Below are positions 2,642 to 47,170 of a stretch of DNA of 64,000 nucleotides, piece by piece. A program made the translations under genes and the position numbers. Each line of letters starts with the position of its first letter. Positions within the stretch are counted from its first letter, which is position 1. This DNA is from Podarcis gaigeae (taxonomy: Eukaryota). The DNA is taken from assembly GCA_964106915.2 (NCBI GenBank), contig OZ066914.1; one strand, written 5' to 3'. Below the pieces are notes generated by a model. That model did no database searches and was not told the origin of the DNA. It was given only the letters and a program-made list of their open reading frames with translations.

Positions 2642-4318
2642 TAATATTCAAAATCCATATGTTCCATATGTTCCAAAATCCATATGTTCAAGGCCCTAGT
2701 TGCAAAATTTCAGGTTGAATTTTGATCGTTCAAAATTCTGATGTAAAAATACAACAGAAATATTTTTTTAAAAAATATAATACTAAAATAGCAAATAGGC
2801 AACAACCCTTACATTTGAAATGGCACTAATCAGCAGACAGCAAATGCCATGGAAAACAAGAGTATCTTTGTTGATAGTGAAAGATGTTCAAAGAATACCA
2901 GATGGAAGATGGTTTCAAAGGCTTGGCCCCAAACTTAAAAGTCCTGCTTTAAGTGGCAGTTCTTCACTGATCTTCCATAGCACAGAGGAATTATTGTTAA
3001 GTAGTCTACATCCTATTTCCCTGATAGTGAATAGGGGTGGTAAGGCATATTATACATATAACCATGTCACATGTTATGCACATGGTGATGGGTATGTATA
3101 AAATCCTGAAACACTCCTTCCCATGCTCCGTCAGGTATAGGATATTTTAACCAGCTCAAATGTATTCCTGGGGCTTGTCCAGGTGTTGTTTGAGGCAGCT
3201 TGTGCAACTTTTTCACTTAAAACCCAATGTCAGAATTCCAATTTGGTGTATGCTGTTTTTAAAAAATCCTAAAGGCCTTGAAGGATTGCTGCTAAAAGTA
3301 CTAGTCAGTTTTGACATGTTAACATGGTAAACAGTTCACAATGTGGATATTTAATCCTTAGTATATATCACATACTTGCCCTTCTCTAAAGCTAATCTTT
3401 AAAACACAGCTTAGTGCCAAAAATCTGAACAGTAGGTTTAGCATTGAATGTTGATGTTTATGAATGGCATTCATCCAGTGGTATGTGTAATAGGGTGGCT
3501 TGAATGCTTAACATAAATATAGTAGTTCAACTTTGTCACCTAAACAGCTGTATTTTTGCTTTTCTTTTAAGATATTGAATATAAACATTTGTGCTCAGTA
3601 TTATTTGACATCTTGGAGTGAGTACTCTAAACAACTTCACAACAATAGGTGTTGCTGATTAGTAGTGTAGTTGCTTAGACAGAGTCGCAAGTGTGCTGGT
3701 AGTTTAAATTTCAATGCTATCTTGCAAACTGAAGAATACACAAGATCTTTTTACTACTCCTGATAATCTTGCACTGGAAAACAATTTATATTGGGTTTAA
3801 CCAACATTAGTTGTACTAACGTTGGCTAGATACGCCTAATTTCATTACATTAATTTCAATGAGTAAAACATGGATACAATCTACTGGTTATTAGTGGTCT
3901 CAGGGAAGTATTAGTTGATTTTCAAGGCAGTATCCAATGAAGTAGTTCTGTTTGACTTAGTGCAAGGACTTTTGGCTGTGCAACAAAACTTCCCCTTCCT
4001 TCCATCTTCCCATGTGCACCTTAAACCTCTTCTGGGGTTTCCCTTCAACTCTCCAGAGCAGATTAGGAGAGGAGGCATGGGGTGGGGGGAGAGAGAAGAA
4101 ATAGAGGAAGTTCTATTGTGAAAATTCTCAAGCTCGCAGAATCCTCAAGCTTCAACCCCAACTTTGCTATTTTTAATTGCTTGGGGCCAAAGAATTGTGT
4201 TTGCAAAGTGAATGCACTTCATCTCATGCACAGCAGAAAAGGGGTTGCCAACTTCTGCAGCTGCAACTTCTGCATGCTGAACGATAACAATTTAATAATG
4301 AAAAATTATCTCCCTTAA

Positions 4319-5155: not shown

Positions 5156-8100
5156 TTATTCAGAATCTCCTCTTGTCTTGGGAGTTAGTTATACTTGGAA
5201 AAATTATTTTGATTCCATAAAATTTGTCAAGTGAAGCATTTTAAAATGAAATACCATGTGGAATCCATTTGGGTATTTCAGTCATCAGGTCAATGCATTT
5301 GAAGGCATTCATAGTTTTAAGACTGGAATTGGGTAGTTTTAAGTTTTTTGGGGGATTTGCAGGCAATTTTTTTTTAAACAGACAGCTGTTAGCCATCTGG
5401 ACCCTCTGGAACAATTACTGTCCAAGCAGCATTTCTGTTGTGAGAATATTTCAGTTTTCCAGAAGCAATATATTGATGCTTGAAAAGGCAATCTCCCCTG
5501 CACCAAGCTAGTGTGCTTATTGCAGTTGTGGCTGCTTTGTAGCTCTGCAAATAGTATCCACAGTTTCCATAACTGATATACTTCCCCTGTGCCCCAAACT
5601 TACACAGGTTGCTGAATTTCTTTATTGGGTGTTTCTATGTTTTCGCTTTAGGCGCTGAAAATCCTTTTAATGTCCCGCAGCAACATGGGAATGCTCATCT
5701 TGTCCTTCAGCAAGAACAAATATGAATCCATTGCAGTGCTATGTACAGCTGTGCTCAACCATTGTGCTTTCTTTCTTTTTGGCAAAACCATTGTGCTTTC
5801 TTTCTTTTTGGCTATGAGCATTCATCTTGATTGGTCATTAGTTTGAGGACAAGGAAAGATTTCTTTGTCATAGCAATACTTTTAAAATGCATTTGAAGCC
5901 ATGCTGTAATTACAACACTTTTGGGGTGTGTACCCAAGACTTGATTTGACCAAAGCCTGTTGTTATTCCTTCATCCTAAGGTAGTGTGTTTAAACCTGGT
6001 TTGTTTTGTCAGTGTGAGGACTTGAAGGTTTAGCTTGGTGGTGGTAATTTAAGTACATAGCCAACTAAGGGGGATAGCCAATGTTCGTCATTAATGTAAG
6101 TAAACCCATTGATGTCATTGGACTTAATTCAATTGATTTCAAGGAGTCTATGTGGAATATAACCTAGATTCAGTTGCAATTCTATAGACGTCTGCTCAGA
6201 ATTAAGTCTTGCTGAGTTCAATGAGGCCTTCTCTCAGATAAGCGGCCATAGAATTGCAACCCTAATTCTCTTTGGCCTAAACATACTTGGCAAAAACAAG
6301 TTTTCTCCTAAAAACCTAAGCTGTGATCAAATTTGCATTTGTGCAATGGTACTTTTAACCACCTCCATTCATTTTGTAGCCTCTGGTGCTCCCTAAAAAG
6401 CAGCATTATTTTTAGACTGCTTTTCTGCCTGAAAGCCCTTAAAGCAGCTTACAACAATGAAAGCAAAATAAATCGCCCCATTACAATTACTGAAAACATA
6501 ATGCAGCAGAGTATAATAGTGACTGTAGTACAGTACCACAGTAAGGCAAAATAGTCAGGGCAACATGAATTCCTCAGGGCCAAAGGCCCAGCTAAATAAA
6601 ATACTGGCCACAGTGCCAGTAACACAATAGGTGGACACTTTGCATGGGAAATGGCAGGTCTTAAAAGCCATATATAGTTTAGGCCCAATATATTTAAAGG
6701 TGTGGACCAGTATTTTGAACTCCAAAAGAACTGGGAGAAAAAGGCTTCATATACGGTAATAGGCCTGTGAAAGAAGTCTGGCTGGAGCATCATGCTCCAT
6801 TTGTAGTTTCCAAAACTTTTTCAGAGTTGTATGCAGATTATGTTATCGTAGTCCAGCCTTGATGTGCCCAAGGCATACAGGGCCAGCCATATAATGAGGC
6901 ATGGTGAGATACTTGCCTGGACAGCAGATCACAAAGGGTGGTTGACCCACCATACTGTTTACAAGCCAGTTGGCCTTGCAGCTGCCACCCACACCACTAT
7001 AGGTGGCCAGTCTGCCTGCTGTAGCTATTACTGCAGTATTGGCTGCTATCACCACTACTGCCTGCCCCCTTGTTCATAAGTTCCATTATGGTTGCCACAG
7101 GGATGCAGTTGGTTGCACTCCAAAAGGTCCCTCTGAGCTTGCTGTCGCTCTCTGAGGAAATGGAATCACATACCCAGGAAATAATGATAACTTTCTCTAC
7201 CCATGTGGTCAAACTTGCCAGTCAAGATGGATATAGGTCAAGTGAGCAGGTGGTCTGCAGGTAGCCGTTGTTGGGCTACTGCTGGCTGGGAGGTGGACCC
7301 CATCTTAGCCTCCCCAACCCTTTTCTGCTGTACCTGCAGAACAGCAGCCCTTTGGAAGAGTCCGAATGTTTGGCCGGCCAGCCCTTCTCATGAAGAGTAA
7401 GAATTTTGACACAGCTGTGGCCGGTTTCTCTATCTCTGGTTTCCTGGGAAGCCTGCCTATGTGGAGTCTTGCCATTGGTGGTGAGCTGAAACTGGCGGGC
7501 TGGACTCAGGGTGACTCCAAAGGTGAGTTGTTTATTTGGGTGGGTTCTTCCTTTCAGAGGGTGATGAGGGTGAGGACACTCCCCCATTGGTGGTGACTGG
7601 TTGTGGGTGGGCTTGCTTCTAGGTGAGTGTGTGAAGCAGATGTCTGTGTGTATGTTAACCTGGATTCCAAGTAAAGTGGAATTATGGGGCGCTTCATCTG
7701 TGATGAAAGCATGAATAAACTTACAAGGATGGACCACCAAGAGTTGTAAACAAAAACCAAATAACCTCATAATGTGGAACATTGATTTACATGGTACTGA
7801 TATAATTATGTTGGGAAAATAAGCCAACAGTGTAGATTTTAATATGAACTCTACCTGTATTTGGTCAGATTTATCATAATTTCTCCTCAGCTACTGCTCT
7901 AGTCATCATCTGCCAGTGGAAGAGGCAACTTGAGAGCAGAGAAGGGGCAGAGTTGGGGGGGTTACCATTTCACAGTATGCTCTCTTCTGCTTATTTATTT
8001 ATTTATTTATTATTACTATTAATTTACATCCATACACAATCTTGGGTACATGTACAGCCTTAAATAGTTATACCATTAAATACTGATTTAAACTTGTATT

Positions 8101-19890: not shown

Positions 19891-20116
19891 ATTAGCATTA
19901 GCTGTGCTCCTTTGGGCAGAAGGGCAGAATCAATTTTTTAAAATATAGATATTTTATTTAGACAATTAAGCATTTATATACATGTAAAAGATCACATACA
20001 GAAACATACAATAAAAACACCACAGCCCCAGTCCCTTCCTTAAAATTAGGATAGAAATTTAATAAATTGAGGAGAGTGATGGTTTTCCGCAGTTTATATT
20101 TTTCTCTTCAAAACAG

Positions 20117-20782
20117 GGAAAGAAGATGAAGAAATTATAGTCAGCTTCTGGAATGGCAAGAAAGCCAAAGTCCCATTGGGTGTAGCCCTGTGGATTTCCC
20201 CAGTGCAGTGGGAGAGGATTGTGGAGATGATCCGGATGCCCCTTACCAGCAGGAAAGCATCTGAAGGGCAACTCCAAAGACCTGGTCACTACAGTGGCTC
20301 ATGTAGGGCTATAACAGACTCCATGCATGGATGCGCTGTAGGTGGCCTCTGCCGGCTCCAGAGGCCATGTTGCTCTTTCATCTCCCCCTGCTCCAGGTGC
20401 TTTCAACACACATGCTCATTCCTTGGACATCCACAGTACGCTTCCTGCTGCTGCCCTAAATACAGTGGCTGCTGGTGGCCACCCTCTTTAACTGAACCAC
20501 CCCAGAGAAACGTTGAAGAAGAGTTCAGCAGTAAACCATTACTGGCAGTGGAAGGGCCTCCAAAGGAAGAAGCAGCCACTGTTGTGTCCAGCTCTTCTTC
20601 TTCTTCATGCTCCTCCGGTTCCAGAAATGGTACAGAAACAGGTTTGACCAAGACCACAATGGTAGATCATGCAGTGAACACGGATTCTAGTCTTTTTGAA
20701 AAGCCCAAGCTGCAAGAAACCAGGAGACCTTGTTGGAAATACTGGAAGAGAAGCCATCCCAGCTCTCGTCATAACAGCCACG
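20117..20782 (+). CDS. C11orf16: C11orf16 large coding exon (KEDEEIIVSFWNGKKAKVPLG...poly-Ser...MVDHAVNTD...WKYWKRS)
   Basis: FWNGK.AKVPLG, SSSSSSSC, AVNTD and W.YWKR motifs; phase 1/1 splice sites. Confidence 0.92.
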
Positions 20783-21256
20783 GTACACAATATTTCATTT
20801 GAATGAGCTTCAAAGTGGAAGGTAGAGGAGTGCCAAAACCTACCTGGCATTATCATATTGGTTGAGGTGAACAGCTATACTGAGACTGATTTTTCTGCTA
20901 ATGGTATCACAGCTACTAACATACTTGGGGATTTCTGGTTTGTTAACTGTGTATTTGTTGGTGTGTGTGTGTGGAGATGAAAAGCACTTGAGGGTTTTTT
21001 ATTTTTACAATCAAGTGGTGTATAAATTTTATGAAATAATTTGCATGAAGTAGTAATATATATCGAGTCAAATCGTGAGCCAACCCCCCCCCCCCCCGTT
21101 GTCTCCAATTGCCTTAACAGAAGAGAGGGATGTTGAAATAATAAATCATGAGGGGGGGAAACCCCCAAAACACTCGGTTCCCTATTTCATACCTTGTTTG
21201 ATTATTTTGTCTTCGTCTAACTACTCACAAATTAAGTGTTATACTATCATGTATAG

Positions 21257-31689: not shown

Positions 31690-32480
31690 CGCACCCTGCA
31701 AAGCGCGAGCACAAATAAAGCAATGCTCGTGCTTCCCTCTTGTGCCGCGGGAAGAGGAGCGACTTTATTTGCTTGTGCGCTCTTTCCACTTATAGACCGC
31801 TCCGTGACCCAAAAGACCTCGAAGCGGCTTAAGCGATTAACACCCTCCGCCAGCTACGGCTCTCATCACCCCCAGCTGGGTTGGCGGGAGTTGGTTGTCC
31901 AGCACACGCGGAGGGCACCAGGTTGGGGGAAGGCGCGGTTCACCAGACCCTCCCGAGGGAAGCCTTCCTCTCCCGCGCGCGCGCTCCGCTGAGAAGGCGC
32001 ACATGCTCCCTCTACCGGCAGGCTGGGGGAACTCACCGTCAGCCGTACTTCCTGGGGGAACTCAGCAATAAGCGGCGATAACAGATCCTCCTGCGCGAAG
32101 CCCCCGCTTCCCTTTTAAAGCGTCAGCGGCCAAAGGAGCCGCCGGTGACGTCACCGAGCAGCCGCTCTCCTTTTCTACGAGCTTCTAACGGCGGCGAGCG
32201 GGTGTCCCTGTTTAGCGGGCGGCGCTGCGTCACAAAGGGCGTGCGTGACGACCCGCTTTCCTCTTCCCGGAGGGTGACCTCCGTAAAGCGGCGGTTCTGC
32301 TGCCGCTGGCTCGGTGGAACTCGGCGGGACTCGCTTCTGAGTAAACACGCGTGGGGCGGCGGTCGTGTGCACGCGCCATTCAGAAACGTGTCCCGAGTCA
32401 GCGGAAAGGCTGGAAAAGAGCCTTTGCACGCGTACCGGGGAGCAAGCCCCGTTGGCTTTCACTGGACTTGCTTCTGAGTA
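31690..32480. promoter_or_regulatory. AKIP1: CpG island: AKIP1 promoter and non-coding exon 1 (minus-strand donor GTGAGT at 32036-32031); possibly bidirectional
   Basis: Dense CpG; full CRE TGACGTCA at 32146-32153, several CGTCA half-sites, ETS-like ACTTCC. Confidence 0.8.
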
Positions 32481-32888
32481 AACGTGCATAGAGCTCTGCT
32501 GTTTTGCGGATGTCAGTCTTGAGCCCAATGGGCACCGAAAAAAGATCCACTTGTTACATTCTGTATGTGGCAGTGTTCCCTGGGTGTGCTGTAGAGCAGC
32601 TGGTTTCTCTTTAGGTCACATCCACACCACAGCTTTTCCCCAAGGAAGCTTGAGAACTGTAGGATGCTTGGATTTGTAGCTCTGTTACAAGTCTACAGTT
32701 CCCAGTGTTATTTGCAAGAAGCCATGACTTTTTATGGGATATAAATGTGCTTTAGGTGTAGGGTGTGGGTGTCACCTTGCATCACAATCGTAGGCATGTT
32801 TACTCCAAAATTCCACCCTTGTCGAATGGAGCTGGTTTCAATGCCATTCTACTCTGGAGTGTCCAAGTGGAATTTACTTCTGACTACT

Positions 32889-33241
32889 GGGATGCAGGTG
32901 GCGCTGTGGGTTAAACCACAGAGCCTAGGACTTGCCCATCAGAAGGTTGGCGGTTCGAATCCCCGCGATGGGGTGAGCTCCCCTTGCTCGGTCCCTGATC
33001 CTGCCAACCTAGCAGTTCGAAAGCAAGTCAAAGTGCAAGTAGATAAATAGGTACCGCTCCGGCGGGAAGGTAAACAGTGTTTCCGTGCGCTGCTCTGGTT
33101 CGCCAGAAGTGGCTTAGTCATGCTGGCCACATGACCTGGAAGCTGTACGCCGGCTCCCTCGGCCAATAAAGTGAGATGAGCGCTGCAACCCCAGAGTCGG
33201 TCACGAATGGACCTTATGGTCAGGGGTCCCTTTCCCTTTAC
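32889..33241 (+). mobile_element. Sauria SINE, full length
   Basis: tRNA head with B box GGTTCGAATCC, gtgcaagtagataaataggtacc core, (CCTTTA)-type tail. Confidence 0.9.
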
Positions 33242-40457: not shown

Positions 40458-40509
40458 GCAAAACAGTCCCTGAGGTATAAAATCCTACAAGTGCCTCTCC
40501 TCCTCACAG

Positions 40510-40544
<35 letters not shown>

Positions 40545-40601
40545 TGTAACCAACCATCAGTTTGCTGCCTTTTAACAGTCACCTACCTGAGGAGACCACC
40601 T
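40458..40601 (+). repeat. Left copy of a ~144-bp direct repeat flanking the YR retrotransposon
   Basis: gcaaaacagt.cctgaggtataaaatcc...(TA)n(GA)n...gaggagaccacct recurs at 42974-43227. Confidence 0.92.
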
Positions 40602-40602
40602 T

Positions 40603-41033
40603 ACTTTAAGGGGCAATGGTGTGCCCAGCGTTGGCCTGAAGCTTGGAGGGGAGGGCCCATTACCAGAGATCTAACCTTCCTAGAATTCTTCCCGATTGTA
40701 GTGGCAATCCACTTATGGTCAGAGGTCTTTAGCAACCATAGGGTTTGCTTCCACACCGACAACCAGGCGGTAGTAGCAGTCCTTACTAGGCAGGCCGCGC
40801 ATTCCTCAAGAGTTGGTGCCCTTCTGCGTTCCTTTGTTCTCCGCTGTTTAGAACTTAATATCCACTTCTCTGCTAAATTTGTGCCTGGTGTTAACAATGA
40901 TATCGCGGATGCCCTATCTCGTTTTCAGATGGACCGCTTCCGCTCGTTAGCACCGGATGCTCAGTTACTACCTCAGCCCTTCCCGGAACAGCTGTGGAGC
41001 CTTGGGGACCAGAGTACTGGGAACCAGAAGTGA
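40603..41033 (+). CDS. RNase H domain (C-terminal part of the DIRS/Ngaro RT-RH ORF; 5' truncated)
   Basis: LTFLEFFPIVVA..LW, FHTDNQAVV and GVNNDIADALSR are DIRS RNase HI motifs. The ORF-track N-terminus is host microsatellite sequence. Confidence 0.88.
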
Positions 41034-41923
41034 TTCAGGGAGTATTAGCCTCATTGGCGCCCTCCAAATTGAGATCTTATAAGAAGGCGTGGTCTGATTT
41101 CTTAAAGTTCCGTGAAAAATCCAGTGCCGCCAGGAGCAAAGCCCCTCCCGTTAGGTCTGAGGTCTTGTCCTATCTAGTGCATTTGAAACACCTGGGACGT
41201 GCCCCAAAAACCCTCAACCTACAGGCCGCAGCGATTTCTTTCTTTTGCAAAGCATTATTTTCATCAGACCCGTGCGCTGAGTTTGTCATACGAAAGACCC
41301 TAGAAGGCTGGCGTAGACTGCAGCCCCCAGCCCAGGATGCGAGGAGGCCCATATCTTTTGACATATTTTTCCAAATTCATAAAAGGTTGCGAACGGTCTG
41401 TTGGTCAAAGTATGAGGCGCGCTTGTTTTCAGCGGCATACTCCATCGCCTTTTTCGGGGCAATGCGTGTGGGTGAGGTAGTTTTTGAGGAAGGTCAGCTT
41501 GGCTCCTCCCGGGGCTTACTGTTGAGTGACATTACACTTTCACGTGAAGATTTGGTCGTGCGGATTCGTAGTTCCAAGACAGACCAGTTCGGGAGGGGTG
41601 CTCTGGTCCGGCTACCGGCAACAGGGGAACTAGGCCCGTGTCCGGTGAAGGACACAAGGCGCTTCTTGTTTATGAGACCTAACATGGCGGGGCCTTTATT
41701 GATCCATGCAAATGGCGTACCCCTGACGCGGCACCAGTTCACCAGGGTCATGCGCTTAGCACTTAAAGCTTGTGGCCTCCCACCAGCAGATTTCGCGGCG
41801 CACTCCTTTAGGATCGGAGCGGCCACCACGGCAATGCACCTGAGCCTTGCGGCCAAGAGGATTAAGGATCTAGGCCGCTGGAAGTCGGACGCATACAAAC
41901 GCTACCTGAGAAAGAATTTATGA
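40994..41923 (+). CDS. Tyrosine recombinase (DIRS/Ngaro YR) with N-terminal SAM-like domain
   Basis: Catalytic set present: FFGAMRVGE (R), SKTDQ (K), HSFRIGAAT (HxxR), GRW, AYKRY (Y); overlaps RH in the -1 frame; no N-terminal ATG. Confidence 0.92.
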   Translation: MEPWGPEYWEPEVIQGVLASLAPSKLRSYKKAWSDFLKFREKSSAARSKAPPVRSEVLSYLVHLKHLGRAPKTLNLQAAAISFFCKALFSSDPCAEFVIRKTLEGWRRLQPPAQDARRPISFDIFFQIHKRLRTVCWSKYEARLFSAAYSIAFFGAMRVGEVVFEEGQLGSSRGLLLSDITLSREDLVVRIRSSKTDQFGRGALVRLPATGELGPCPVKDTRRFLFMRPNMAGPLLIHANGVPLTRHQFTRVMRLALKACGLPPADFAAHSFRIGAATTAMHLSLAAKRIKDLGRWKSDAYKRYLRKNL

Positions 41924-41986
41924 CATCCCAGCCGGGGATTTACTGACCATGGCCTGTTCTTTCGATTTCTTGCAGGAGATACGGGG

Positions 41987-42550
41987 GTGCGCGTCTGGAT
42001 AATCGGGCACAGCATAGTGCACTGGGCCGGGGTCCGCGCCATCAATTCCGGTCTGGGGCCGCGACTGGGCTTGCCGGATGGCATCACGATATCCTGGGTC
42101 TCTCGGAGAGGAATGCGTTGGGCTGAGATGTTGCCCGCATTTAAGACCAGAGTCGCGAGAGAGGGCCCCCCGGATGCTTTACTTATACAATTGGGTGAAA
42201 ACGACCTGGCCTATAGAAAGGCGGCCGATTTGCAGTGGCACATATTTGGTGACCTGGAGGAGCTTAAGACCGCTTACCCAAACCTCACAATCATTTGGGC
42301 CTCCTTGATGGAGAGGCGGGTTTGGAGAGATTGCAGGTGCCCGATGGCCATAAATAGGGCAAGGAAAGCCGTGGATCGGGCGGTGGTGCGTAGAGTGGCA
42401 GCCCTGGGGGGAAAGGTCATACGACACCCGGGCATTCGTTTCAATGGTGAGGCCCTCTACCGGTTTGATGGCGTGTATCTGTCTGATGCAGGAAATGATA
42501 TATGGCTGGAGGATATAGCTATGGGGATAAGGGATTGGTTTCAGGCATGA
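41987..42550 (+). CDS. SGNH/GDSL-like hydrolase of the Ngaro element
   Basis: Block I IIGHS, block II RGMRW, block III QLGENDL, block V DGVYLS (His replaced by Tyr). Confidence 0.85.
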   Translation: MRVWIIGHSIVHWAGVRAINSGLGPRLGLPDGITISWVSRRGMRWAEMLPAFKTRVAREGPPDALLIQLGENDLAYRKAADLQWHIFGDLEELKTAYPNLTIIWASLMERRVWRDCRCPMAINRARKAVDRAVVRRVAALGGKVIRHPGIRFNGEALYRFDGVYLSDAGNDIWLEDIAMGIRDWFQA

Positions 42551-42877
42551 GAGGATTGGCGGCGAGCGTTTGCTCGTGTGGCGGTAGGCATTGGTAAGAA
42601 GGGGTTAAGACGATGTGGGGGGGGGGAGGAACGCCATCACCTCCCCCCAGCGAGCGAAGGGTGGTCCGTTAAAGGACCCCGGGGGGCGTGGCCCTGTCCG
42701 AAGCCTATGGAGGTGTGGGCCAAAGGCACGCCCCAGAGCGGTGACCCGGGGGAGCTCCTAGTCGACGTGCCTCGCGGGAGTCTCCCCCGATATAAGGTTA
42801 ACCCTTCCCCGTGTCTCCAGCAAATGGGCTGGAGCCGGATAGCCGTTAGGACCAATGCCTATGCCAATGCCTCTCAT
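42547..42877 (+). ncRNA. Predicted structured cis-RNA in the 3' region of the retrotransposon
   Basis: Nine mutually compatible helices found by eye (see findings). Confidence 0.6.
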
Positions 42878-42973
42878 TCCTGAATTCAATAAAGTTGTGG
42901 CCTAATTCGCCCAATTAACCTTACATACGGTGTCTTGTGTCTTTATTTCCTGGTGGGGGCGGGAACTCGCCAC

Positions 42974-43119
42974 GCAAAACAGTGCCTGAGGTATAAAATC
43001 CTACAAGTGCCTCTCCTCCTCACAGTATATATATATAAAGTGTGCATGCACACGAAAGCTCATACCAAGAACTGACTTAGTTGGTCTTTAAGGTGCTACT
43101 GGAAGGAATTTTTTTTGTT

Positions 43120-43170
<51 letters not shown>

Positions 43171-43227
43171 TGTAACCAACCATCAGTTTGCTGCCTTTTA
43201 ACAGTCACCTACCTGAGGAGACCACCT
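42974..43227 (+). repeat. Right copy of the flanking direct repeat, interrupted by a Penelope fragment
   Basis: Matches 40458-40601 except one substitution, microsatellite length and an ~83-bp insert. Confidence 0.92.
43038..43120 (+). mobile_element. Penelope-like element terminal fragment with partial hammerhead ribozyme
   Basis: GTGTGCATGCACAC-GAAAGCTCA followed by ttagttggtctttaaggtgctactgga, inserted in (TA)n. Confidence 0.7.
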
Positions 43228-44171
43228 CACTCTGCCTAGGGGTAGACCAGCCTATACTAGTGACTGGCCTGTAGTAGTCCTTGTTTTGTCTTCTGTGGAA
43301 ACGTTAGAGATGATGGTCTTTTTCTAAAACAAAAATCTGTTAGTGTGCATGTTCATGTGAAGTAGTTTAATCTTCCAGCCACCAGTAACTGCTTATCCAA
43401 GTAGTAAATGTTGTTCAACTTTTTAATGCTGTAGTTTTCCATAAGAAGTGCAACCAGGTCCATTGTGAGATTATAATTATTCTATTAAACATCCTTTTAA
43501 AAAAAGAAATGGATACGATCAGTTTACTCACACACTTGATTCAGAAAACAGGGCAGGACAGATGATTTCTGAAGATTGCTGTATAGAAGGCACCTAGTGA
43601 TGTGTTTGTAAGTGAGCTCACATACATGTGCTCAAGCAAGCACATGTATGCTCAAGCACTCAAGCAAGCACTTGGTGTGAAAACAGTGGTGTAAGCAATC
43701 AAATGTGTGTCTGTTTTCATCTGTAAAATGTTGGAGGGTATGTAGGATTTATGAAGTCACTAGGTTCTGATTTGGTGAAAGTCAGGTCTAAAGTGTTTGG
43801 TAATGGGACAAACCTGGCATAAGATGGGGAGGAGGAAGTTTGGAGTAAGAAGGGTAGAAAATAAGCAGGAGGATGACTGCTGGCCCACATGCCCCTGAAG
43901 TACCTTTGTGCAGTTCTCTAGGACATGTGAAAATGGCCAAAGACACACTTCTTTTTAAAAGTGCCGAATCCATAGGACTACAGAGATGCCAGAAAGTTCT
44001 GCTTTGCCCTGCCCTGCATCTCTTCATTCTTCTGAAGAATGATCAAGAGATGCTTGGAGTCATACATAAAAAGTACACCTTTCAGGCACTGCAAATGTGG
44101 CACCAGCAGATTCCCACAGGATGCCCTCACCTCCCTGAAATTAGAATTGAAAGCTGCATTCTATTGTAGCT

Positions 44172-45268: not shown

Positions 45269-45599
45269 TCCATACACCCAGTATAGCTAATATAATGCTT
45301 GATTTATTTATTAAAATTGTATCCTCCCTTCTACCCAAAGGAGCCCAGGAAGGCAAATAGGTTGCGGTGTGTTCTTGGTTGGTATTAGGGTTGGTGTCTG
45401 GTATTCACAGCAGTTTTTTTCTGATCTGCAAATGTGCCCCTGGGTCCAACAGGGTTGGTAGCCCTGAAGGCGGTGGATTCTCCTAAAGAGATATATTTTT
45501 AAGCAGAGGCTGGCTGACCACCTATCAGGGATGCTATTAACACAGCAGATTTCCTCCGTCTCCTGGCGGGTGACAATAGATGACCTCGGAGGTCCCTCC

Positions 45600-47170
45600 C
45601 AACTCTTAGGATCCGTTTATATGGAGCGACTTGGTCGTCAAATAACTGATCAGCCAAGAGCTTGCGGGGGGCGAGAGGGCGCCCGGCAGTGTGAACCGGA
45701 ACTCGCGTTGGCGCGCAAAAAAATGAAGGAGAACCCGGTGTCTCCAAATGGTGAACGGCGAGCGAGGAAACTTAAAAGCTGCCGGCGGCTCCAACGAGGG
45801 CCCCCCTCCCCGCTTCCCCGTTTTCATGCATAAGAAGCGATCCACTTTTTTCCTCGTGATTGGAACCAGATGCTCCTCACCAGGGAGAGCTTTTATTGCG
45901 ACGGCCGCTGGGGGGGGCGGGCGGTCAGGGCTGGATCGGGGGCTGGTCGCGAGTGGCTTCTCACGCTCTTTCGTTCGCCTCAGAGCAAGCCAGTGGTCAG
46001 CGCCACTCGTGACCCCCCCCCCACGAGACCCCGTGAAAACCCAGTAAACAGACTCCTGCCACGAAGCTCGGGGGCTGCAGACCCCTTCCTCCCAGTTCCA
46101 GCTTGATCCTGTGAGCCAAGAGCGGAGAATAGTCCCCCGCCCCCCCCCCCCCGTTTCCTTGGGATGAGAGGAGTCTGAGGGAGAGAGGAAGTTGGGAAGC
46201 TCGCCGTGGTCTGGCGACGGCCGGGGCTTCCCGCTCTGGGCCGCCCGCCGCCCCCCCCTCGGCCGTCGTGGGCTAAGGCGGGCTGCGGCAGAAGCCCTCT
46301 CGCCCCAGGGAGCCGCTTTCGTTGCCGGCCGCCGGGTTACTGGTGGTTCCCATTAATCTCCCGCACTGGCCCTCGCTGTCTCCACTTCCTGTCTTGGCAT
46401 ATTTCTCTGTCTCGCCCTCCCCTCCCCCCGCGCGTTTCCAGATTCTCTTTTAGGGGAAAAAAGCGAGGGAGGTTGAGGGGGGGGGCAGAAGAGAGAGAGT
46501 TGCATCTGGCCAAGCGAAGAGATCAGAACTGGAGGCGATCTCCGGCGAGCTGCAACAGGCGATCTTCGACATCTGCACTTCTTCCAGCGCAGGGCAGCAG
46601 CCCAGGTAAGGGAGAAGGAGAGACGCCGGGCTCCGGCTGGCGGGGCGGCCCGAGAGGGTCTCTCTCGTTTCCTACACACGGGAGAGCCCAGGAGGCGATT
46701 GCAGTTGCCATCTGGAAGGCTTCGGGTTTCGCTTTTTCCAGGGGACGGGGAGGGGAGAAGCTTCTTCGGCGGCGCTCTTCTCTGCTCCTCAGGAAAAGGG
46801 CTGCCTGCGTCTCTGTGGCTGAGGCAGCGTTTGAACGGGGCGAGCGCCCGGCAGTTCTCTCTCTGGGAAGAACAATGGATTCACCTCGGCGCGAAGGGAA
46901 GAGGAGGGACGCCGGGCAGCAGGCGAGTCCCCCCCGGAGATCCACGTTTGGGTCTTCCTTGCATGCGACCCGGGGCTCGGACTTTGCTTGTTTGCTCGTA
47001 ATGTTCGGGTTGTTTCGGGGTATTTTCTAGCTCTTTGCTTGGAAGGGGGTTCAGGGCAACTTGGAGATGAGGAAGGAGGGAGCGTATTCTTTCTCCCCTT
47101 CCCATAAATCGACTTGCACTGCCCGGTTTAGGAGGATAGGTGGCGCTTACGCACCGTGCTCACCCGTTTT
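45600..47170. promoter_or_regulatory. CpG island, probable DENND2B (ST5) promoter and non-coding exon (donor CAG|GTAAGG at 46606)
   Basis: High CpG/GC and GC boxes; DENND2B lies next to AKIP1 in mammals. The gene assignment rests on synteny only. Confidence 0.6.

Follow-up and report, generated by a model that had tools for sequence, protein, structure and literature searches.

How a hydrolase ORF with no initiation codon ahead of its catalytic motif could be expressed was the question raised by a locus of Podarcis gaigeae, where such an ORF follows that of a tyrosine recombinase (YR). The stretch analyzed, referred to as the window, comprises 64,000 nucleotides of contig OZ066914.1, and coordinates given without a locus name are those of the window. 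The initial annotation had proposed two built-in routes of expression, namely read-through of the YR stop codon and splicing to a 3' splice site in the spacer between the two ORFs. The features underlying this proposal were all found in place: the TGA-C at the stop, the 21 sense codons, a TACTGAC and a TTGCAG, an exon in phase 1, and the absence of an ATG before the GHS motif. Comparison with related copies makes it very probable that the conserved 3' splice site of the spacer yields a spliced Gag-hydrolase fusion in intact Ngaro elements, the read-through frame being open in the window copy alone among the eight copies of its family.

The region at 40601-42978 (+ strand) holds the 3' portion of a retroelement, including the tail of an RNase H, the YR, the SGNH-like hydrolase ORF, and one B repeat. 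It is a 5'-truncated copy of a Ngaro-type YR retrotransposon, and it shares 94-96% identity over ~2380 nt with the sibling copies L031, L033, and L034. The RT/RNase H ORF is represented by its 3' end (40601-41033, +; stop at 41031-41033), which includes the motif ADALSRFQM and is homologous to an ORF of L033 that bears an RVT_1 domain (Pfam, E=6e-14). The retained B repeat (~400 bp; 42579-42978, +) contains an AATAAA, and the A2 and B2 repeats are absent, as are gag, its splice donor, and the RT core. Without gag, the donor, and the block V His of the hydrolase, the window copy cannot itself make the spliced fusion, and all claims on splicing and expression concern its family.

The assignment to Ngaro was drawn mainly from full-length siblings. 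In four of these, with a mutual identity of 99.2-99.7%, the ORFs for gag, RT/RH, YR, and hydrolase are all open, and the gag-like, RT/RH, and YR ORFs overlap on one strand, as in Ngaro. The split direct repeats A1...B1 A2 B2 are complete in L033 and L036, where A measures 224-225 bp and B 401-403 bp at an identity of at least 99.5%. Also in keeping with Ngaro, a methyltransferase domain had no Pfam match at E 0.05 in the four ORFs of L033, the one copy scanned. The hydrolase ORF is placed after the YR in both the window and L033, which is the arrangement of amphibian-type Ngaro elements; the order of gag, RT/RH, YR, and hydrolase and the A1...B1 A2 B2 repeats are likewise those described for the Ngaro-like elements with an SGNH ORF in Xenopus, DIRS-53_XT and DIRS-54_XT (PMC9210276). 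Pfam matches of the L033 YR to the Phage_integrase and SAM-like domains were weak and below the cut-off, and the YR of the window copy had no match of the integrase type. The nearest named proteins to the element come from Podarcis, Lacerta, and Zootoca.

Several observations concern the structure of individual copies. The young copies L032 and L037 end after B1 without A2 and B2, which is consistent with recombination between B1 and B2. Around the truncated copy in the window, ~148 bp of host DNA is duplicated on both flanks (40458-40605 and 42974-43231), and the right repeat carries an additional insertion of ~110 bp. This host repeat has a GCAAA in common with the element end, a microhomology of 4-5 nt is found at the 5' break, and the duplication may have resulted from a microhomology switch between the empty and filled alleles.

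A total of 240 loci were fetched, from which 41 duplicates and 30 gag-only loci were removed. The GHS motif was found in 154 of the 169 remaining loci, and the YR end was also present in 138; these 138 include L039, L042, L043, L113, and L217, where later lesions distort the assignment of stop and spacer. Another Ngaro family, from G000 (e.g. L221), was represented by more than 90 copies with identical hydrolase scores, which suggests a very recent burst. Additionally, loci L017-L030 form an internally rearranged group with two tandem hydrolase starts, of which the first is broken, and with a junction at TGCAG.

The SGNH-type hydrolase exon spans 41976-42550 (+), with the GHS Ser codon at 42011 and the GEND motif at 42194. 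Its match to Lipase_GDSL_2 (E=0.0021) was below the Pfam cut-off, and a PDB sequence search with the hydrolase returned no match. The block I Ser (GHS) and the block III Asn (GEND) are present in the window copy and its relatives. The block V DxxH is present in the family but absent from the window copy, which reads DGVY with a Tyr at 42476 in place of the His; among 123 copies with long ORFs, DGxH was found in 110, and some of the remainder were mis-anchored. The first in-frame ATG of the window hydrolase is at 42113, downstream of GHS (Gly codon at 42005), and two out-of-frame ATGs (41920 and 41949) start short ORFs. This lack of an upstream ATG is specific to the copy, as an ACG at 41981 replaces an in-frame ATG found in all seven siblings. 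Across families, an in-frame ATG at least four codons upstream of GHS was found in only nine of 69, among them the family of the window but not the window copy. Near the other end of the hydrolase, a difference of 1 nt (L033:7930-7978) adds 12 codons in the young siblings compared with the window copy and most families.

Read-through was proposed from the end of the YR ORF, where the stop TGA-C (41921-41924, +) is followed by 21 sense codons that continue in frame into VRVWIIGHS. Neither the stop context nor the open frame was conserved in the siblings. The YR stop is TAA-T in six of the seven closest siblings, and all seven spacers are broken, five by an in-frame TGA and two by being 1 nt shorter. 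The CGA codon that opens the spacer frame (41963-41965, +) occurs only in the window copy, and the frame is closed in all four young full-length copies of the family. With stops and frame-breaking indels in the other copies and an open spacer in one of eight, the proposal of a built-in read-through route is refuted for this family on the condition that the initial annotation itself had set. Judged from the sequences compared, read-through is not a maintained route there.

A wider comparison revealed one clade in which read-through deserved separate consideration. Among the 138 copies, the YR stop is TGA in 61, TAA in 59, and TAG in 18; spacers range from 58 to 128 nt except in two damaged copies, and their lengths fall into the three frames as 68, 30, and 40. 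An open spacer was found in 51 copies, of which 32 belong to clade 6, the sister of the clade of the window, and the stop, its context, and the open frame were together kept by majority in 12 of 69 families. In clade 6, a TGA is present in 32 of 37 copies and ten of 13 families, mostly as TGA-CT with an open spacer of 78 nt; for example, L065, L141, L143, and L149 have this fixed spacer after TGA-CT(A/T)G. TGA-CTAG, which corresponds to the UGA-CUAG motif that promotes programmed read-through (PMC4132726), occurs with an open frame in 22 of the 138 copies, mostly in clade 6, and two old copies from the clade of the window (L040 and L044) are also TGA-CT and open. Clade 6 keeps this arrangement although its spacers are only 71% alike, while clades of similar divergence vary freely. 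These patterns favor a programmed read-through of the YR stop that would produce a YR-hydrolase fusion. Against this, the window has UGA-CAUC rather than the known motif and does not share it with its family, stop types outside clade 6 are mixed, and the frame there is open in only 19 of 101 copies. No sign of selection was found in clade 6: the avoidance of stops in the spacer was not significant, as chance alone readily gives zero stops (column shuffle, P0=0.43) and another frame has one stop in 23 haplotypes; no codon-position pattern was seen; TGA-(C/T)T persists in three families despite a spacer that is out of frame; and no 3' RNA structure was found downstream of the stop (mean z +1.2). 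Clade 6 also carries the gag donor described below and has a spliced gene model (P0008). Programmed read-through is thus unlikely to be the route of hydrolase expression; it would be an accident of one copy in the family of the window and at most a second route in clade 6, where its occurrence is a weak possibility.

The splice signals of the spacer behaved differently. The 3' splice site of the hydrolase exon consists of a pyrimidine tract and CAG (41952-41975, +), and it is preceded by a predicted branch point TACTGAC (41941-41947, +), whose A at 41946 lies 30 nt upstream of the exon. The TTGCAG at 41970-41975 places the start of the exon at 41976, in phase 1 and 29 nt before the GHS glycine. 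Of the 154 copies, 144 have an AG at 31-30 nt before this glycine, and in 141 the base ahead of it is C or T. By comparison, any offset from -60 to -32 has an AG in at most seven of the 154, and AG is nearly absent from the 28 nt upstream. Of the ten misses, three were mis-anchored, five had small downstream indels, one was replaced, and one was mutated. Almost every copy has a branch-like YTNAY at a distance of 20-34 nt upstream. The exon is entered in phase 1 throughout, with a variable first residue (Gly, Glu, or Asp), and the AG is fixed although the spacer itself varies between 58 and 128 nt. On this evidence the acceptor is conserved beyond chance, and the splice route for the hydrolase is supported.

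The donor that would serve this acceptor was sought, and a candidate phase-1 site CAG|GT was found in gag, after codon 242 in L033. It encodes [S/T]-G-T following a basic and then an acidic/Ser tract. Of 119 long loci, 54 yielded the donor, many of the others being truncated or rearranged and some missed by the pattern. For the Gly at the donor, 52 of 53 loci use GGT, as do 35 of 36 families, compared with a background of 30%, and the base preceding this codon is A in 30 of 36 families, compared with 23%, while the third base of the next codon is variable. As the families are related, counts across them are not independent; in a control for relatedness using 20 families, the two columns of the donor were the sole invariant ones among 48 four-fold columns, with the next best at 0.84. 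The columns indicate that the gag donor is under synonymous constraint. A conserved donor and acceptor are thereby present, as in an env-like spliced subgenomic RNA. The splicing proposed by the initial annotation accordingly held with regard to acceptor, phase, and branch point; as the donor is in gag, splicing would probably produce a fusion of Gag and hydrolase in place of a free env-like protein.

A second phase-1 3' splice site was found upstream of the YR (40891-40928, +), consisting of a branch-like TTAAC, a tract, and CAG. The YR coding exon would extend from 40929 to 41923 (+); the first Met of its 340-codon stop-to-stop ORF is at residue 187, and an early ATG is usually absent from YR ORFs. 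The acceptor coincides with the Gln codon of the RNase H motif ADALSRFQM, which is CAG in all 39 families compared with a background of 55%, and this location within a conserved motif explains part of its conservation. It is in phase 1 to the YR in 38 of 39 families, and the YR frame is closed 7-11 codons upstream in 38. The Gag basic tract directly precedes the acceptor in eight of 28 YR homologues, including P0172, which is 82% identical to the YR of the window's family, and the RefSeq models P0167, P0170, P0172, and others enter the YR at this site.

RefSeq models of lizards also fuse the front half of Gag to the hydrolase at the predicted acceptor. Of 12 longer hydrolase homologues, eight are such models from Podarcis and Zootoca, two join the YR to the hydrolase, and two place the hydrolase in host genes. 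One half of P0016 and of P0008 maps to gag and the other to the hydrolase of G000 copies; for P0016, a single G000 copy matches at 80% in gag and 91% in the hydrolase. The isoforms X1 and X2 of Zootoca LOC118082278 share 207 identical amino acids and then continue into either the YR or the hydrolase. Models of this kind are predictions. As a rule, pairs of RefSeq isoforms are based on aligned transcripts. The YR is joined to the hydrolase in the Podarcis models P0011 and P0012, where the link is shorter than all genomic spacers, and likewise in the unnamed protein P0079.

A further reading takes the splice-like signals for by-products and attributes the gene models to faulty prediction, as the model set includes the apparently spurious joins P0009 and P0018, which make the hydrolase an exon of an immunoglobulin-superfamily gene and of an olfactory receptor. 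Such an origin is very unlikely given the invariant synonymous positions at the donor, the AG that stays fixed in a spacer of varying length, and the two isoforms with a common donor. Direct traces of spliced products were also sought. For four runs aligned to a sibling, none of the matches listed contained a joint at the predicted sites; these runs resembled genomic DNA, with contigs of up to 39 kb, and were given no weight. Among 40 matches of gag DNA and 98, 101, and 21 matches of three fusion proteins, with the top candidates scored, no spliced retrocopy was found. Of the candidates, C63:6723 (seen as L172) proved to be a microsatellite, and L248, L250, and L251 were ordinary YR ends.

In the env-like alternative, the acceptor would receive a non-coding leader, and translation of the hydrolase would begin at an ATG of its own shortly after it. 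This alternative has some basis in the family of the window. The ATG of the seven siblings lies eight codons before GHS, with a purine at -3 and a G at +4, and ~2.1 kb of non-coding sequence precedes gag. However, such an ATG is confined to the nine families noted above, a leader splice has no need of a fixed phase 1, and the gag donor together with the RefSeq joins favors a fusion, which leaves the leader splice quite improbable.

For the RT, which precedes the YR, a third acceptor was not found: no AG was invariant within 120 codons upstream of the RT motif RMIH (best 21 of 26, in phase 2). A CCC-TTT-CGN in the gag frame, with the RT in +1, was found in 21 of 26 families (L033:4720-4740 and homologous sites; background 60% for TTT and 54% for CGN), and a shift or a wrong anchor accounts for the remaining five of the 26 copies. 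The RT frame is closed upstream, in some cases only three codons away. The site resembles the PA-X +1 site UCC_UUU_CGU (PMC3498833), with CCC in place of UCC, and by its sequence CCC-UUU-CGN is a candidate PA-X-type +1 frameshift site for Gag-RT.

Taken with the Gag-hydrolase fusion favored here, these sites would fit a single scheme. One gag donor would be spliced alternatively to the YR acceptor, removing an intron of ~2.4 kb and giving a product of ~570 aa, or to the hydrolase acceptor, removing ~3.4 kb and giving about 430-445 aa. In L033, these joins would link the donor at position 3941 to the YR exon at 6321 or to the hydrolase exon at 7368. Both spliced RNAs would use the same start codon as the unspliced RNA, from which full Gag and Gag-RT would be made, the latter likely by +1 frameshifting at CCC-UUU-CGN. 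Through the front half of Gag, both esterase and recombinase would be attached to the particle, and the esterase could act on lipids or membranes from inside it, by analogy to the ORF1p of ZfL2-1 (PMC3905857). It is about an even chance that vertebrate Ngaro elements follow such a retrovirus-like programme, with Gag, frameshifted Gag-RT, and one-donor Gag-recombinase and Gag-esterase from one start codon, and with UGA-CUAG read-through to Gag-recombinase-esterase perhaps added in one clade.

LTR elements commonly express a 3' ORF by splicing (PMC5408684), and env or ORF3, including the GDSL ORF3 of bdelloid rotifers, is reached there, as here, by way of a conserved acceptor that follows the final replication gene. 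Unlike in those elements, the donor of the lizard Ngaro lies inside gag, gives an in-frame Gag fusion, and likely serves the recombinase as well, and the lizard Ngaro has neither LTRs nor a DDE integrase. An SGNH esterase joined to a structural protein, as proposed here, is known from the LINE ORF1p of ZfL2-1, CR1, and RTEX (PMC3905857); there the fusion is in a single ORF, whereas in Ngaro it would arise by splicing and leave full Gag without the esterase. The Ngaro hydrolase has no proven function in published accounts (PMC9210276, PMC6681497). The Xenopus Ngaro paper mentions in its main text neither splicing nor readthrough (PMC9210276), while the present analysis defines one donor and two acceptors in a squamate. 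No description of the scheme proposed here was found in the main texts of the literature searched, including PMC9210276, PMC7192593, PMC6681497, PMC9341512, and PMC4157794, with two founding papers outside this set. The scheme bears on how YR retrotransposons express overlapping and often ATG-less genes and on the role of the Ngaro hydrolase. Its exact junctions allow tests at the level of primers and define real proteins for assay. A Gag-spliced esterase, if true, would parallel the LINE ORF1p esterase and point to a common lipid or membrane step.

Around the copy, no host gene was indicated by Pfam, as none of 26 window ORFs had a match above the cut-off. An ORF of 240 codons (20080-20799), with a weak match to DUF4537 below the cut-off (E=0.0016), is possibly a host exon. 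SINE-like repeats were found at 32900, 35300, 44400, and 54800, and two GC-rich islands around the region (32000-33000 and 45500-47100) are probably host promoters.
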